64,000 bases of DNA from an uncultured Pelagibacteraceae bacterium. GTDB taxonomy: Bacteria; Pseudomonadota; Alphaproteobacteria; Pelagibacterales; AG-422-B15. A program made the translations under genes and the position numbers. A model generated the notes under the pieces. It ran no database searches. It saw only the letters and a program-made list of their open reading frames with translations, and had not been told where the DNA came from. Where the stretch lies: the NCBI GenBank assembly GCA_902589175.1, contig CACIRX010000001.1, forward strand, positions 67,983 through 131,982. The letters are read 5' to 3'. Shown here piece after piece: positions 5,949-43,155 of this stretch. Each line of letters begins with the position of its first letter. Position 1 is the stretch's first letter.

Positions 5949-6034
5949 GCCGTCGTGCTGGAATTGGTAGACAGGCTGGTTTGAGGGATCAGTGAACGTG
6001 GTTCGTGAGAGTTCGAGTCTCTCCGACGGCACCA
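5949..6034 (+). tRNA. tRNA-Leu (anticodon GAG), long variable arm, CCA encoded
   Basis: Hand-folded. Acceptor gccgtcg/cgacggc, anticodon stem ctggt/atcag with loop ttGAGgg, T-loop gttcgagtc, 3' ACCA. Confidence 0.9.
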
Positions 6035-10219: not shown

Positions 10220-10296
10220 GGCGGGGTAGCTCAGTTGGTTAGAGCGGAGGAATCATAATCCTTAGGTCGGGGGTTCAAATCCCTCTCCCGCTACCA
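10220..10296 (+). tRNA. tRNA with CAU anticodon (elongator Met or lysidine-modified Ile2; not initiator-like), CCA encoded
   Basis: Hand-folded 77 nt. D-arm gctc/gagc, anticodon stem gagga/tcctt with loop atCATaa, T-arm ggggg-ttcaaat-ccctc. It lacks the three G-C pairs of initiator anticodon stems. Confidence 0.85.
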
Positions 10297-31165: not shown

Positions 31166-31438
31166 TTAGTTATTTTGAAGACTTTTTGCAACCCTAAAAA
31201 CGTTAAGAATTCCTGCTGCACTACCTAAGAGAAAGAAAATTAATGTGAAGATGGGTCTGGTATTAAAATAATTGTCAATCAGCAAACCAATTCCTAGTCC
31301 AACAGCCATTGCTGCGACAATTTCAACCACTACTTTCATGATTTTACCGAATGGTTTGGGGGCCTTAGCTTCTTTAATAGACTGGCTTTCTTTTGCTTTT
31401 TTTATTCTATTTTCAAGAGAATTAGCATCATTATTCAT
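31166..31438 (-). CDS. atpI: AtpI/AtpZ-like small membrane protein of the F0 operon
   Basis: Two TM helices directly upstream of atpB. The internal ATG at 31438 (MNNDANS...) avoids the overlap with smc implied by the track start at 31465. Confidence 0.65.
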   Translation of the reverse strand: MNNDANSLENRIKKAKESQSIKEAKAPKPFGKIMKVVVEIVAAMAVGLGIGLLIDNYFNTRPIFTLIFFLLGSAAGILNVFRVAKSLQNN

Positions 31439-31448
31439 CTTCAATATA

Positions 31449-34040
31449 CTAGGCAACGGCCCCAATCTCTTCAGCTTTTTTAAGATCTACAGAGACAATT
31501 TGACTGACGCCTCGTTCAGCCATAGTTACACCAAACAATCTATCCATTCTCGACATTGTGAGCGCGTGGTGAGTTATAATTAAGAACTTGGTATTCGTTT
31601 TTTCTGTAATGTCATCTAAAAGACCACAAAATCTATCGACATTTGCATCATCCAGTGGCGCATCAACCTCATCAAGTACACAAATTGGGGAAGGATTTGT
31701 TAAAAATACAGCGAAGATTAGAGATAATGCTGTTAGTGCCTGTTCCCCACCAGATAACAATGACATTGACTGAAGTTTTTTACCTGGTGGACTTACCATC
31801 ATTTCAAGCCCCGCTTCAAGTGGATCATCAGAGTCTATAAGTTCAAGGTGCGCTTTTCCACCGTTAAATAATTTTACAAAAACTTCTTTGAAATGTGTGT
31901 TTACAGTTTTAAACGCTCCAAGCAGTCTTGTTCTACCTTCTTTATTTAAATCTTCTATAGACTCCCTCATTTTTTTGATTGCGTTTTCTAAATCTTCTTT
32001 TTCAGTGGTCATTTTTTCAAGTTCTTCATCTATTTCTTTTGTTTCCAAATCTGCTCTTAGATTCACAGCACCCATTGTTTCACGCTGCTGCTTAAGTCGA
32101 TCAAGTCTCATCTCAGTTCTTTCGAGGTTAGCTCTCATAGTTTCAAGATCATCTGATATAGAGAGAGAATTTACAATTTCACTAGGAATACAGTTAAATT
32201 TCTCTTTTGACTCGTATTCTAATTCTTTTAATCTTGATTCAGCTAATTCTTTTGTCGCTTCTGTCCTTCCTTTAGACTCTCTTATGTTAGCGAGATCATT
32301 TTGGGCTTTTCTTAAATTAGTCTCAATTTTTTTTAATTCATTATCAGCTTCAGCTAAACGATCAGCTGCAAACTGTCTTTCTGTCTCTGCAAAGCCTTTT
32401 GTTTCAATTAATTGACCTCTTCTCTGGGCAATTTCTTCTGGGCGATTAGAGATTTTCTCTAGCTCTTGCTCAGTTTTTATTTTTCTTTTTTGCAATGTTT
32501 CGATTTGTTCCTGAGATGACTTAATTGTTTTATTCAATCTCTGAAATTCATATGTCCAATCACTTTGTTTTTGTTCAACGTCTTTTTGTCTGAGTTTTTC
32601 TCTTAATTCCATTGATAATGTTGCTGCATTTTTTGCCTCATTACTTGCTCTGTCATAATTTGCCTTAGCTTCGTCTGAAATATTGCTTGCTTGATCCACT
32701 TTCTCACTGATTTCACCAAGATCATTGTAAAATTTTTCTTTAAATATATTTGTCCATTTCTCAGGATCATCATAACCTTCCACGTCTTTTAAAGTTAATT
32801 GCCTTGATTTCAAATTTTCTGCTTTAATCAAAGTGTCTTGCCAATCATCTCTTTTAGAATTTTTAATCTGATTATATTGTTCTATTTGTTGCTCAAGATT
32901 TAAAATCTCTGTTTCCAAAGTATCCTTTTCTGACTTAAGTTGATCAATTGTTTCATTGTTTATTTCTTGAAACTCTTCGTTATTAGAGAGATCTTTTCTT
33001 GCATTTAGTAAATCAAGATCTTTTTTAGCATCTTCCAGTTGAAACTGCTCCCTCTCACTATCGCTGATTATTTGTTGAATTACGTTTTCAAGATTTCTTT
33101 TTTCTTCTTTTATTCGTTCTTCCTCATGATCCAATGACTCTCTCTCGAGATTAATACGATTTAATTTTGCCGCAGACTCAATTTCTTTATCTCTTAAAGG
33201 CTTAATTTTCTCATTGGCTCTTAATTGTTCATTAGTAGCCTGAGTTACTTGCAACGTAAATTTTTGGATTTGAGACTCACTTGATCTTAAATTCTCATCT
33301 GACTTTTCATAAGATTCTTTTAAAGATGTCCACTTTAGGAATAAAACGATACCCTCTAATTTGTTAATTTCAGACGATACTGAGCGGTAGGTTTCAGCTT
33401 GTTCAGCTTGTTTTTTAAGACTATTGATTTGATTATTTAATTGTTTCATCAAATCCTTAACCCTTTGAAGATTAGTTTCTGCGCCTTTCAATTTTAGCTC
33501 CGCTTCATGTCTTCGTGAATGCAGCCCAGATATTCCTGCCGCTTCTTCTAATACCGAGCGTCTATCTATAGGTTTAGCATTTATTAATGAACCTACGCGT
33601 CCTTGGCTGATCAAGGATGGAGAATGAGCTCCTGTAGATAAATCTGCAAATAATCTTTGTACATCTCTGGCTCTAACGTCTTTACCATTAATTTTATAAT
33701 CTGATCCCTTTTCAACTTCTATTTTTCTTTTAACTTGAATTTCAGTTTGATCATTAAATTCAGACGGCGCGTTTCTTTCCTCATTATCAAGATAGATTGT
33801 TACTTCAGCATTATTTCTTGCTGGTCTATCTGATGTACCAGAAAAAATTACATCTTCCATTCCTGAACCCCTCATGCTTTTTGCAGAGGTTTCTCCCATG
33901 CACCATCTTAGGGACTCAACAACATTTGATTTACCACATCCATTAGGACCAACTATGCCTGTTAATCCCTCATCGATGTCTAATTCAGTAGGATCAACAA
34001 ATGATTTAAAACCTAAAATTTTTATTTTTTTAAATTTCAT
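31449..34040 (-). CDS. smc: SMC chromosome-condensation ATPase, unusually short (863 aa), no recognisable hinge
   Basis: N-head 'GIVGPNGCGKSNVVESLRWCMGE' (Walker A). C-head 'LLSGGEQALTALSLIFA...CVLDEVDAPLDDANV' (signature motif plus Walker B). The middle part is heptad-like charged sequence only. Confidence 0.9.
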   Translation of the reverse strand: MKFKKIKILGFKSFVDPTELDIDEGLTGIVGPNGCGKSNVVESLRWCMGETSAKSMRGSGMEDVIFSGTSDRPARNNAEVTIYLDNEERNAPSEFNDQTEIQVKRKIEVEKGSDYKINGKDVRARDVQRLFADLSTGAHSPSLISQGRVGSLINAKPIDRRSVLEEAAGISGLHSRRHEAELKLKGAETNLQRVKDLMKQLNNQINSLKKQAEQAETYRSVSSEINKLEGIVLFLKWTSLKESYEKSDENLRSSESQIQKFTLQVTQATNEQLRANEKIKPLRDKEIESAAKLNRINLERESLDHEEERIKEEKRNLENVIQQIISDSEREQFQLEDAKKDLDLLNARKDLSNNEEFQEINNETIDQLKSEKDTLETEILNLEQQIEQYNQIKNSKRDDWQDTLIKAENLKSRQLTLKDVEGYDDPEKWTNIFKEKFYNDLGEISEKVDQASNISDEAKANYDRASNEAKNAATLSMELREKLRQKDVEQKQSDWTYEFQRLNKTIKSSQEQIETLQKRKIKTEQELEKISNRPEEIAQRRGQLIETKGFAETERQFAADRLAEADNELKKIETNLRKAQNDLANIRESKGRTEATKELAESRLKELEYESKEKFNCIPSEIVNSLSISDDLETMRANLERTEMRLDRLKQQRETMGAVNLRADLETKEIDEELEKMTTEKEDLENAIKKMRESIEDLNKEGRTRLLGAFKTVNTHFKEVFVKLFNGGKAHLELIDSDDPLEAGLEMMVSPPGKKLQSMSLLSGGEQALTALSLIFAVFLTNPSPICVLDEVDAPLDDANVDRFCGLLDDITEKTNTKFLIITHHALTMSRMDRLFGVTMAERGVSQIVSVDLKKAEEIGAVA

Positions 34041-34669
34041 TAATTAATTTCTTTTTCAATTATTTCATCAAATTCATTAATCGACATATTACCTGCATAA
34101 ATTTCACCATTGATTATGAAAGTTGGAGTTGAAGATATATCATACTCCTCAACACCCTCTATGCGCTGCTCCAGTATAAAATCAGTAATATTCTCATTTT
34201 CCATACAGCTATTAAACGCCTCCTCAGATACGCCGAATAAGGCCCCATAATTCTTAAGTGCATTAGTGCTGTTTTCTAGTACTTTATCGCTCTGATTAGT
34301 TACAATCCATTTTTTTTGATCTTTAAACAGAATTTTGTCCATTGCAAAAAAATCATTTTCATCAACACAATGAAGTAATTTAAAAGCGTTAAGATCAATC
34401 GCATTGAGAGCAAAAGGTCTCAATTCAAAATTCACTTTACCTTTATCGATATAATTTTCTTTAATTTCTGCAAAGGTGTCATTACTAAAGTCTGCGCAAT
34501 GACTGCAAGTGAGCGATCTATATTCAATAATTTTCACTGGTGCGTCGCTATCACCTAACTGCATCCCCTTTAATGTACTGCTGGCATACAATCCACTAAT
34601 TGGAAACATCAACGCAAATAGAAATACGATAAAACTAGTACTGAATAAAAAATTAGATTTAAAACCCAT
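34040..34669 (-). CDS. DsbA-like periplasmic thiol:disulfide oxidoreductase
   Basis: 'LTCSHCADF' CxxC motif and a signal-like N-terminus when started at MGFKSNFLF... The track start at 34717 is possible. The stop overlaps the smc start by 1 nt. Confidence 0.75.
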   Translation of the reverse strand: MGFKSNFLFSTSFIVFLFALMFPISGLYASSTLKGMQLGDSDAPVKIIEYRSLTCSHCADFSNDTFAEIKENYIDKGKVNFELRPFALNAIDLNAFKLLHCVDENDFFAMDKILFKDQKKWIVTNQSDKVLENSTNALKNYGALFGVSEEAFNSCMENENITDFILEQRIEGVEEYDISSTPTFIINGEIYAGNMSINEFDEIIEKEIN

Positions 34670-34777
34670 ATTTTGCTTGTTTTTTTTATATATATACAAC
34701 ATGTTGAATATACTCAATTTTTCCTTATTTTAATAGGATTTATTACTCTGTTGGAGTAGCAGAAAATTTTGTTTGAA

Positions 34778-35245
34778 TTAGGACTTTAAAATTTTTGAAG
34801 CGATTTTTTCAAAGTTTCTTCTAAGATCAGGATATTTTTTTAGTTCATCATAATTCTTACTTTGGCTCTTAATATCACTTTCTAATTTATTGATTTTAAT
34901 TGTTTTTTTAACCTTATTTGATGCTTGTATTATTTCAACTTTGTTAATCACTTCATAGCCAAAAAAAAGATTAATTTTTTTAATTATTTTCTCTCGCTCG
35001 TGCTCAAACGCAAAAGCCACACTTCTATCAACTTTAACAATTAATTTACCATTATTTTTTTCACTGCTCTTACCTATTTTAAGCCGTAATGGAATGGTTA
35101 ATTTTGCAAATTTTTTGCCCACAATTCTCTCCCAATTTGCTAAGAGTTCTAACTCTGAAAAACCTCTTGATTTAAGGATTTTCTTTGCTTCTTCTGGAAG
35201 AAGATTTGATAATATTTGAGGGCCTTTTAATTTCTTTTGAAACAT
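34778..35245 (-). CDS. DUF721 (DciA-family) protein
   Basis: 'LLANWERIVGKKFAKLTIPLRLK...GKLIVKVDRSVAFAFEHEREKIIKKIN' follows the DUF721 pattern (W..IVG...A..T.P..L..G.L.V.V). Divergent from mutY, as in other alphaproteobacteria. Confidence 0.6.
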   Translation of the reverse strand: MFQKKLKGPQILSNLLPEEAKKILKSRGFSELELLANWERIVGKKFAKLTIPLRLKIGKSSEKNNGKLIVKVDRSVAFAFEHEREKIIKKINLFFGYEVINKVEIIQASNKVKKTIKINKLESDIKSQSKNYDELKKYPDLRRNFEKIASKILKS

Positions 35246-35266: not shown

Positions 35267-37462
<2,196 letters not shown>

Positions 37463-43080: not shown

Positions 43081-43155
43081 TGGGGCGTGGCCAAGCGGTA
43101 AGGCACCGCTTTTTGGTAGCGGCATTCGGAGGTTCGAATCCTCCCGCCCCAGCCA
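43081..43155 (+). tRNA. tRNA-Gln (anticodon UUG), CCA encoded
   Basis: Hand-folded 75 nt. Acceptor tggggcg/cgcccca, anticodon stem ccgct/agcgg with loop ttTTGgt. Close to the canonical bacterial tRNA-Gln sequence. Confidence 0.9.

Follow-up and report, generated by a model that had tools for sequence, protein, structure and literature searches.

In a stretch of 64,000 nucleotides from an uncultured Pelagibacteraceae bacterium (contig CACIRX010000001.1; this whole stretch is referred to as the window, and its G+C content is about 32%), we found an smc gene whose product carries no hinge domain. The gene occupies positions 31449..34040 of the minus strand and encodes 863 amino acids (aa) plus a stop codon. 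From the open reading frame (ORF) list, the match to the SMC model TIGR02168 and the matches to solved structures it was identified as a short-armed SMC ortholog, and we are nearly certain that it is the orthologous smc gene of the Pelagibacteraceae without the hinge. The hinge counts as essential to SMC proteins and as one of their defining features, providing dimerization, DNA binding and possibly a gate, and SAR11 is often called the ocean's most abundant bacterial lineage. By descent the protein is an SMC, yet in architecture it does not fit the definition of these proteins, which includes a hinge. A preliminary description of the window, made from the letters of the DNA, had listed the same 863-aa ORF, which our ORF list confirms, and had read it as a natural SMC with short arms and no hinge. 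Our data support this reading. A hinge match, a folded domain at aa 400-480, an assembly artefact and membership in a different family had been named there as observations that would speak against it; each of them was tested and none held.

Both halves of the ATPase head are present. The N-terminal half (aa 1-175; 33516..34040, minus strand, as all features of this gene) was delimited from the sequence and by alignment to the Bacillus subtilis Smc head (5xg3/3zgx), and the C-terminal half (aa 701-863; 31449..31940) from the sequence, the B. subtilis Smc head structures and the invariant columns. The three ATPase motifs that the preliminary description had named were recovered at aa 31-38 (Walker A, GPNGCGKS; 33927-33950), aa 762-767 (signature, LSGGEQ; 31740-31757) and aa 788-797 (Walker B, VLDEVDAPLD; 31650-31679). 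Together with the Q-loop (Q146), these head motifs were invariant in 35/35 sequences, and almost all positions of the N-terminal head half were invariant in both of the hinge-less clades described below. When the protein was compared with TIGR02168, the NCBIfam equivalog model of bacterial SMC, it scored 727.7 bits (cutoff 567.35), and the match fell into two pieces that skipped the middle of the profile (positions 348-673, approximately). The N-terminal piece placed aa 3-350 on profile positions 2-347, and in the related model TIGR02169 profile positions 674-1165 were matched by aa 354-853. Pfam SMC_N extended over aa 4-846 (5e-48). In the PDB, head constructs of B. subtilis Smc matched best (1e-100), and hinge-only entries were absent from the matches. 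The closest representatives of 50%-identity clusters were SMCs of about 1150 aa, which shared 42-53% identity with the protein in a two-block alignment that left about 290 residues unmatched.

The missing part is the hinge. With the Pfam hinge model (SMC_hinge, PF06470) no match was found in the 863-aa protein even at E<=10. Taken alone this negative result is weak because the model is a poor detector in the alphaproteobacterial SMCs of this lineage: on the closest canonical relatives (1152-1153 aa) it matched only profile positions 4-51 of 116 with 23-28 bits, and it missed or under-scored the hinge of shorter relatives, including the 874- and 933-aa forms. A lineage-specific hidden Markov model (HMM) of the hinge with 133 positions was built from 134 canonical relatives of about 1150 aa, and all collected proteins were scored with it. 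All proteins longer than 1120 aa (n=145) reached 70-178 bits, 121 of the 122 proteins of 870-880 aa exceeded 50 bits (median 119), and all proteins of 855-866 aa (n=305) remained below 2 bits, with 1.5 bits for the 863-aa protein itself. The score distribution was bimodal and had no intermediates. In the MAFFT alignment, the well-conserved hinge block of the relatives ('...V.PGYE.A..AALGDDL...HW...LP.G..PL...RRLSQIGLV...GQRLVS..G.LWRWDGF...RNRL') was present in proteins of 874, 933, 988, 1016, 1091 and 1099 aa and was missing from the 863-aa protein and from a second family of 857/858 aa. These scores agree with the absence of a hinge domain that had been noticed in the preliminary description. 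A hinge encoded in trans by a separate ORF was not found in six-frame translations of the 64-kb window and of the flanks of related loci. Some longer members of the hinge-less 90% clusters, P0459 (1075 aa), P0528 (911 aa), P0332 (942 aa) and P0508 (878 aa), also scored about 0 with the hinge HMM; presumably they are gene-call fusions or extensions.

The region that stands in place of the hinge was modeled with AlphaFold2, both in the full-length protein (with a 35-sequence alignment) and in a fragment comprising aa 335-540. The fragment model (pLDDT 88, pTM 0.62; pLDDT and pTM are the confidence scores of AlphaFold2) consists of a single long antiparallel hairpin, in which helix 362-418 is followed by a loop at aa 419-430 (DVEGYDDPEKWT; loop pLDDT 76-82) and by helix 431-539. 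The full-length model has helices at aa 171-347, 362-423, 431-531 and 533-615, short ones at 619-637, and then 639-656 and 663-725. No globular domain was predicted by AlphaFold2 at the fold-back point, and when the apex model was compared with the PDB by Foldseek, no match was obtained at E<=0.001; the list consisted of coiled-coil hairpins of a generic kind, SMC arm fragments among them. Thus, for the segment around aa 400-480 AlphaFold2 gives only a helical hairpin and a 12-residue loop, and the fold-back apex that had been expected near the midpoint of the protein coincides with the predicted turn at aa 419-430. DSSP assignment of the AlphaFold2 helices delimits an N-terminal coiled-coil arm (aa 176-418; 32787..33515) and a C-terminal arm (aa 431-700; 31941..32750); the apex loop between them (32751..32786) was placed by the AlphaFold2 fragment and the MAFFT map against hinge-bearing relatives. 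The N-terminal arm contains a variable loop (aa 348-361; 32958-32999), at which the clades differ in length, and the C-terminal arm contains a joint-like break at about aa 616-640 (32121-32195). Both are predicted as non-helical, so that, contrary to what had been stated, the apex is not the only such stretch. The flagged region 32703-32792 does correspond to codons 417-446, although the 31-residue string quoted for it is L417-K447, an inconsequential shift by one residue. Between aa 176 and 700 the protein has 8 Gly, 4 Pro and 1 Cys, and this sole Cys is C617. There is no CxxC motif in aa 176-700 and no Cys near the apex, which bears out the statement that the apex is not a zinc hook.

To map what was removed from the arms, we used two conserved landmarks, a D..RE motif at about aa 327-331 of the N-terminal arm and, in the C-terminal arm, W495, which is conserved in all relatives. 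The distance from D..RE to the hinge is about 180 aa in canonical SMC vs 88 aa to the apex in the 863-aa protein, and the distance from the hinge to the landmark W is about 150 aa vs 65 aa from the apex. Beyond the hinge of about 133 aa, some 80-90 aa of each distal arm are therefore gone, and these losses explain the length difference of about 290 aa. The remaining arm measures about 265 aa when head boundaries of the B. subtilis type are applied and about 250 aa by the AlphaFold2 helix limits. The arms are short, as the preliminary description had it, but its value of about 240 aa per arm should be replaced by about 250-265 aa. The apex residues VEGYD (aa 420-424; 32772-32786) resemble the hinge start V-x-P-G-Y-E and were aligned with it by MAFFT; they are absent in the 857-aa clade. 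They may be left over from the border of the hinge, or the resemblance may be a coincidence, and we keep the former as a weak idea only, because one contiguous deletion centered on the hinge would have taken the motif away.

Compared with the canonical Smc of Smc-ScpAB (TIGR02168; 5xg3/3zgx), the SAR11 protein has the same type of head sequence with all ATPase motifs, a head-proximal coiled coil and a joint-like break, and its locus and tree position are those of the alphaproteobacterial ortholog. It differs in having a 12-residue loop where canonical Smc carries a hinge of about 133 aa, and in arms of about 250-265 aa vs about 345 aa, with a total length of 863 aa vs about 1150 aa. Natural SMC arm lengths follow a multimodal distribution, and B. 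subtilis Smc, the wild-type arm of which has 344 aa, becomes functional again when the arm is cut to 253-267 aa (PMC5344682). In the same study, a chimera in which the Rad50 zinc hook replaces the Smc hinge was described as functional. Zinc hook and SMC hinge are also reported as interchangeable dimerization modules in a second publication (PMC6969161). The SAR11 arms of about 250-265 aa are therefore of a permitted length, and the native hinge fold is replaceable. The engineered B. subtilis proteins Mini-Smc and Smc(Zh) (PMC5344682) thus resemble the SAR11 protein in their shortened arms, the range of which (253-267 aa) includes the SAR11 length, and in that the native hinge can be removed with function kept.

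On the basis of these data we suggest the following scenario, which as a whole, mechanism included, we hold to be the best explanation with some confidence. In it, the ancestor of two SAR11 clades lost the entire hinge (about 133 aa) together with about 80-90 aa of each adjoining arm. What remains is a complete and strongly conserved ABC-ATPase head, with two helices of about 250-265 aa that form an antiparallel coiled coil closed by the 12-residue loop. The missing hinge, the hairpin fold, the ortholog status, purifying selection over the whole length and the single loss are shown by our analyses, and the mechanism that follows is inferred. The protein would still be an ATP-driven chromosome organizer that works with a kleisin, and that it remains a Smc-kleisin chromosome ATPase appears reasonably probable to us. 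The link between its two copies would come from ATP-engaged heads and a kleisin bridge, and hinge dimerization would most likely also be substituted by side-by-side packing of the arms or of the aromatic-rich tip (Y423, W429, F433, F437, Y438). Whether tip or arm contacts contribute to dimerization, rather than the heads alone, we regard as evenly balanced. The DNA-binding and gate functions of the hinge would be dispensable in a tiny, slow-growing cell, and an arm length of the permitted phase (about 265 aa) would have been kept. For the kleisin partner, the single piece of evidence is a 'segregation and condensation protein A' annotated by KEGG in a metagenome-assembled genome (MAG) of Pelagibacter (PMC12570018, Table 2).

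Several observations weigh against this scenario. The apex cannot be aligned between the two hinge-less clades, and almost no invariant columns were found in aa 345-484. Within the clade of the 863-aa protein (clade 1) the apex is the least conserved and fastest-evolving part. A dedicated conserved dimer interface would not be expected to diverge like this between and within clades. In a crude heptad analysis, non-core hydrophobic residues were only slightly in excess near the tip, to a degree similar to other arm segments. As judged from its sequence, the tip has no recognizable dimerization module, and the dimerization element of the scenario is hypothetical. The engineered B. subtilis proteins differ in this respect, since they kept a strong dimerizer (hinge or Rad50 zinc hook), whereas the SAR11 tip has no recognizable one. 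In the 64-kb window we found no gene for ScpA, ScpB or ParB; for ScpA and ScpB we used a regular expression for the GPLDLL-type motif and inspected all ORFs of the window. Finally, the full-length AlphaFold2 model was confident for the arms but poor for the heads (pLDDT 64.7, pTM 0.30).

The first alternative has to be considered on the basis of the same observations. It says that the copies are connected at the head end alone, through ATP-engaged heads and kleisin, and that the tips are free, so that the complex is an open clamp or bridge and not a closed ring or rod. DNA would then be clamped on the heads, without the arm-enclosed compartment of canonical Smc-ScpAB. The low conservation of the apex, its unrelated sequences in the two hinge-less clades and a predicted fold with nothing beyond a hairpin are all in line with free tips, and the hydrophobic seam, with no greater excess at the tip than elsewhere in the arms, does not speak against them. 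However, hundreds of sequences keep to a length of 863/864 or 857/858 aa, and the arm length lies within the range that permits function in B. subtilis. This constant and permitted arm length suggests that the arms still perform mechanical work for which paired arms are normally needed. Moreover, the apex is still under purifying selection, and the tip aromatic residues are invariant within clade 1, where V420, E421, G422, Y423, D424, W429, T430, F433, F437 and Y438 form an invariant cluster. We therefore consider an open clamp possible but rather unlikely. The apex of the 857-aa family (L042:6001-8574; '...NLIDECKINLSFLKMKI...') has an unrelated sequence with a conserved single Cys in (D/E)EC(K/S) and a conserved NLSF motif.

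Ortholog status of the gene is apparent from its locus and from the phylogenetic tree. In the window the gene order is UDG-rnhB-ccrM-mutY-dciA-dsbA-smc-atpI-atpB-atpE-atpF'-atpF, and the same order was found around the 857-aa gene and around the hinge-bearing genes of 933, 874 and 988 aa. A neighbor-joining tree was calculated from 704 ungapped columns with 100 bootstraps. Here, the hinge-less families of 863/864 and 857/858 aa were sisters (93% bootstrap), and this pair grouped with the hinge-bearing 874-, 933- and 1099-aa forms (85%). The 988-aa form (P0208) was shortened independently and is sister to canonical SMC at 100%, and the 1016-aa form (P0202) fell outside the wider clade of the hinge-less proteins, where its placement was not resolved. 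Since the hinge-less clades are sisters nested among hinge-bearing relatives, the simplest history is a single loss of the hinge in the ancestor of two Pelagibacteraceae clades, against a background in which streamlined marine alphaproteobacteria have shortened the SMC arms repeatedly.

The hinge-bearing relatives became short by a different route. The short SMCs (872-879, 933, 988 and 1016 aa; P0236, P0266, P0208, P0202) of related marine alphaproteobacteria share the locus with the SAR11 gene, and the 872-879-aa family (P0236), the 933-aa form (P0266) and the 1099-aa form (P0250) also share the wider clade with the hinge-less SMC. In contrast to the latter, P0236, P0266, P0208 and P0202 have a full hinge (112-154 bits), and their arms were cut instead (about 205-280 aa). 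For P0236 (L052:8001-10625, 874 aa) and P0266 (L051:8001-10802, 933 aa) the hinge scored 112-141 bits and the arms measure about 205-240 aa. The 872-879-aa family is abundant, and with its hinge and arms of about 205-215 aa it reaches a nearly equal total length.

A second alternative is that the gene is a specialized paralog and that the main job is done elsewhere in the genome by a canonical hinge-bearing SMC or by MukBEF/MksBEF. Our view of the genome is limited to the 64-kb window, which leaves some room for such an arrangement. However, the gene sits where the hinge-bearing relatives have their sole detected smc, and SAR11 genomes are extremely reduced. The hinge-less variants of an oceanic survey discussed below do not co-occur with regular SMC in single-cell amplified genomes (SAGs) of the GORG-Tropics collection (PMC12153180), although the identity of that cluster with the SAR11 form is uncertain. 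We thus judge a paralog to be very unlikely.

Identity with an SMC-like repair ATPase that naturally has no hinge, such as RecN, Rad50/SbcC or another protein of this kind, is more improbable still. Heads combined with a hinge-less hairpin coiled coil resemble the architecture of RecN or Rad50, and the NCBIfam models of both families gave weak matches. These matches remained far below the cutoffs, with 71.7 bits for Rad50_Halo (cutoff 1000), 37-72 bits for all Rad50 models (cutoffs 700-1087), 34.7 bits for the RecN model TIGR00634 (cutoff 407.85) and 20.6 bits for PRK10869 (cutoff 418), whereas the cutoff of TIGR02168 was passed. In addition, the CxxC hook is absent, the gene fills the smc slot of the conserved locus, the protein branches within the alphaproteobacterial SMCs, and its nearest cluster representatives are the SMCs of about 1150 aa mentioned above. 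A RecN/Rad50 identity is thus refuted as homology and the family named by the preliminary description stands, although in function the protein may have converged toward a repair role. With Rad50/SbcC it shares an ABC-ATPase head as well as an antiparallel coiled coil, the apex of which is very small and not a globular hinge, but Rad50 dimerizes via its CxxC zinc hook and the SAR11 protein has no Cys near the apex. RecN is likewise an SMC-like ATPase without a hinge, and its dimer is formed by association of the coiled-coil tips; it is, however, a far shorter repair protein, to which the SAR11 protein is not homologous at the ortholog level.

The idea that a hinge is present but has diverged past recognition is barely credible. 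It could draw on the weakness of the Pfam model, which misses the hinges of the 874- and 933-aa forms, and on a phmmer search with one canonical alphaproteobacterial hinge, which gave no match in the PDB. However, there is no space for a hinge, since only 12 non-helical residues are found at the fold-back point, and the lineage HMM left a gap between the hinge-less proteins and the 70-178 bits of hinge-bearing relatives. Moreover, a profile of the same hinge block matched the solved Smc hinge 5h69 across both halves (E=6.7e-4), and the missing part is therefore a bona fide SMC hinge. A diverged hinge is effectively refuted by these data. The alphaproteobacterial SMC hinge itself is short (about 133 aa) and divergent, as exemplified by P0121 (aa 510-641), and it reaches the solved hinge by profile only.

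The hinge-less form is widespread. We found hundreds of homologs of 863/864 aa with 79-100% identity, on none of which PF06470 is recorded, and the second hinge-less family of 857/858 aa (about 45% identity) is equally populous. Proteins of both length classes occur on hundreds of independent Pelagibacteraceae contigs from SAGs, MAGs and metagenomes (ENA, JGI, NCBI, Logan, Tara). In a GTDB scan, the window was 100% identical to Pelagibacteraceae SAGs of GORG-Tropics (AG-914-D08 and others), and the 857-aa form was found in a different Pelagibacteraceae SAG. The short form is thus shared by related genomes, a point that the preliminary description had raised for checking, and it forms two hinge-less clades. 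By pairwise Nei-Gojobori analysis, the ratio of non-synonymous to synonymous substitution rates (dN/dS) was 0.035-0.065 over the whole gene. Evolution is faster in the distal arms and the apex, with dN of 0.13-0.38 for pairs that are 80-86% identical vs 0.05-0.08 in the heads, and the proportion of non-synonymous differences (pN) was far below that of synonymous ones (pS) throughout the gene, apex included. Purifying selection acts over the whole length of the gene. Because the closest genome records are SAGs, where chimeras can occur, one might suspect an artefact of assembly or amplification, or else a pseudogene in decay. This is refuted by the intact reading frame with its low dN/dS, the invariant ATPase motifs and the equal length and sequence in a large number of independent SAGs, MAGs and metagenome contigs, so that practically no probability remains for it. 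The NCBI product name is 'AAA family ATPase' for P0103, P0104, P0461 and P0462 (863/864 aa) as well as for P0285 and P0299 (933- and 988-aa forms), and 'chromosome segregation protein SMC' is the name given to the 1099-aa relative. Surveys based on names would therefore count genomes of the SAR11 type as lacking SMC.

Hinge-less SMC proteins of the ocean have been reported before. In a survey of 2025 (PMC12153180; Environ Microbiome 2025;20:65), a small and very abundant cluster of 'hinge-less SMC' (cluster 9 of OM-RGC, COG1196) was described, for which AlphaFold gave heads and coiled coil without hinge, which has no CxxC motif and for which no co-occurrence with regular SMC was seen in GORG-Tropics SAGs. 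The cluster was assigned to the class Actinomycetes, its host lineage was left open and SAR11 is nowhere mentioned. Compared by description only, it resembles our protein as an abundant marine COG1196 SMC homolog without hinge and without CxxC; it differs in its taxonomy, which is Actinomycetes vs Pelagibacteraceae here. In the NCBI taxonomy, Candidatus (Ca.) Actinomarinales belongs to the class Actinomycetes. Cluster 9 was matched to SAGs of GORG-Tropics, the same collection that is 100% identical to the Pelagibacteraceae window. Since it was matched to this collection and yet labeled Actinomycetes, either the label is wrong or the hinge was lost twice. Cluster 9 may thus be the SAR11 family mis-assigned, or it may represent a second, convergent loss (e.g. 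in Ca. Actinomarinales). Our literature searches found no hinge-less SMC in SAR11. In either case, hinge-less SMC as a general phenomenon had already been published. What is new is the placement of a hinge-less SMC in the Pelagibacteraceae, its ortholog status, the phylogeny with a single loss, the series of hinge-bearing sisters and the match in arm length.

These findings are of more general relevance for SMC function. The hinge-less form is fixed, stands under purifying selection, occupies the normal smc locus and occurs in two large clades of very abundant bacteria, and as a conserved SAR11 variant it amounts to a natural experiment on the role of the hinge. Because the sister lineages cut their arms and kept the hinge, a comparative series is available (about 1150, 1099, 933 and about 875 aa with hinge; 863/857 aa without), with which one can ask on which SMC parts loading, translocation and ring closure depend, and whether the length of the arms is under a constraint separate from the hinge. 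A concrete host is also offered for at least one of the oceanic 'hinge-less SMC' populations left unexplained in the 2025 survey. A more far-reaching proposal is that the SAR11 chromosome is organized by an SMC without any dimerization module at the arm tip and that hinge loss is recurrent in streamlined plankton (SAR11 and the 'Actinomycetes' cluster of PMC12153180). We consider this proposal doubtful; if it were true, a closed ring or rod and the DNA-binding and gate functions of the hinge would not be universally required in vivo.

The genes adjoining smc lie on the same strand. Upstream is a DsbA/thioredoxin-like gene (34040..34717, minus strand), identified from the ORF list and from Pfam Thioredoxin_4/DSBA matches on its equivalents in related loci. 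It ends on the very base with which smc begins, and therefore the two genes are probably co-transcribed. It is preceded by a dciA-like gene (34778..35245, minus strand; ORF list, with PF05258 DciA on the equivalent in L052 and L053). Downstream, an atpI-like gene (31166..31465, minus strand; ORF list, with PF09527 on the equivalent in L051-L053) overlaps the 3' end of smc by 17 nucleotides (31449-31465), is followed by atpB-E-F'-F and anchors the synteny on this side. A CcrM-type N6-adenine methyltransferase is encoded at 36315-37412 (minus strand), and its equivalents in related loci carry N6_N4_Mtase and RAMA. Replication and cell-cycle genes (CcrM-type methyltransferase, DciA-like) thus cluster with smc. 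An overlap of 20 nucleotides (36315-36334) is also found between the convergent mutY and ccrM-like ORFs; together with the overlaps of smc with its two neighbors, this shows a tight packing that is typical of a streamlined genome. Elsewhere in the window, the tRNA genes for Met (10220-10296) and Gln (43081-43155) were found by both ARAGORN and Rfam, and a tRNA-Leu(gag) at 5949-6034 (plus strand) was called by ARAGORN and was not reported by the Rfam tRNA model at its gathering threshold.

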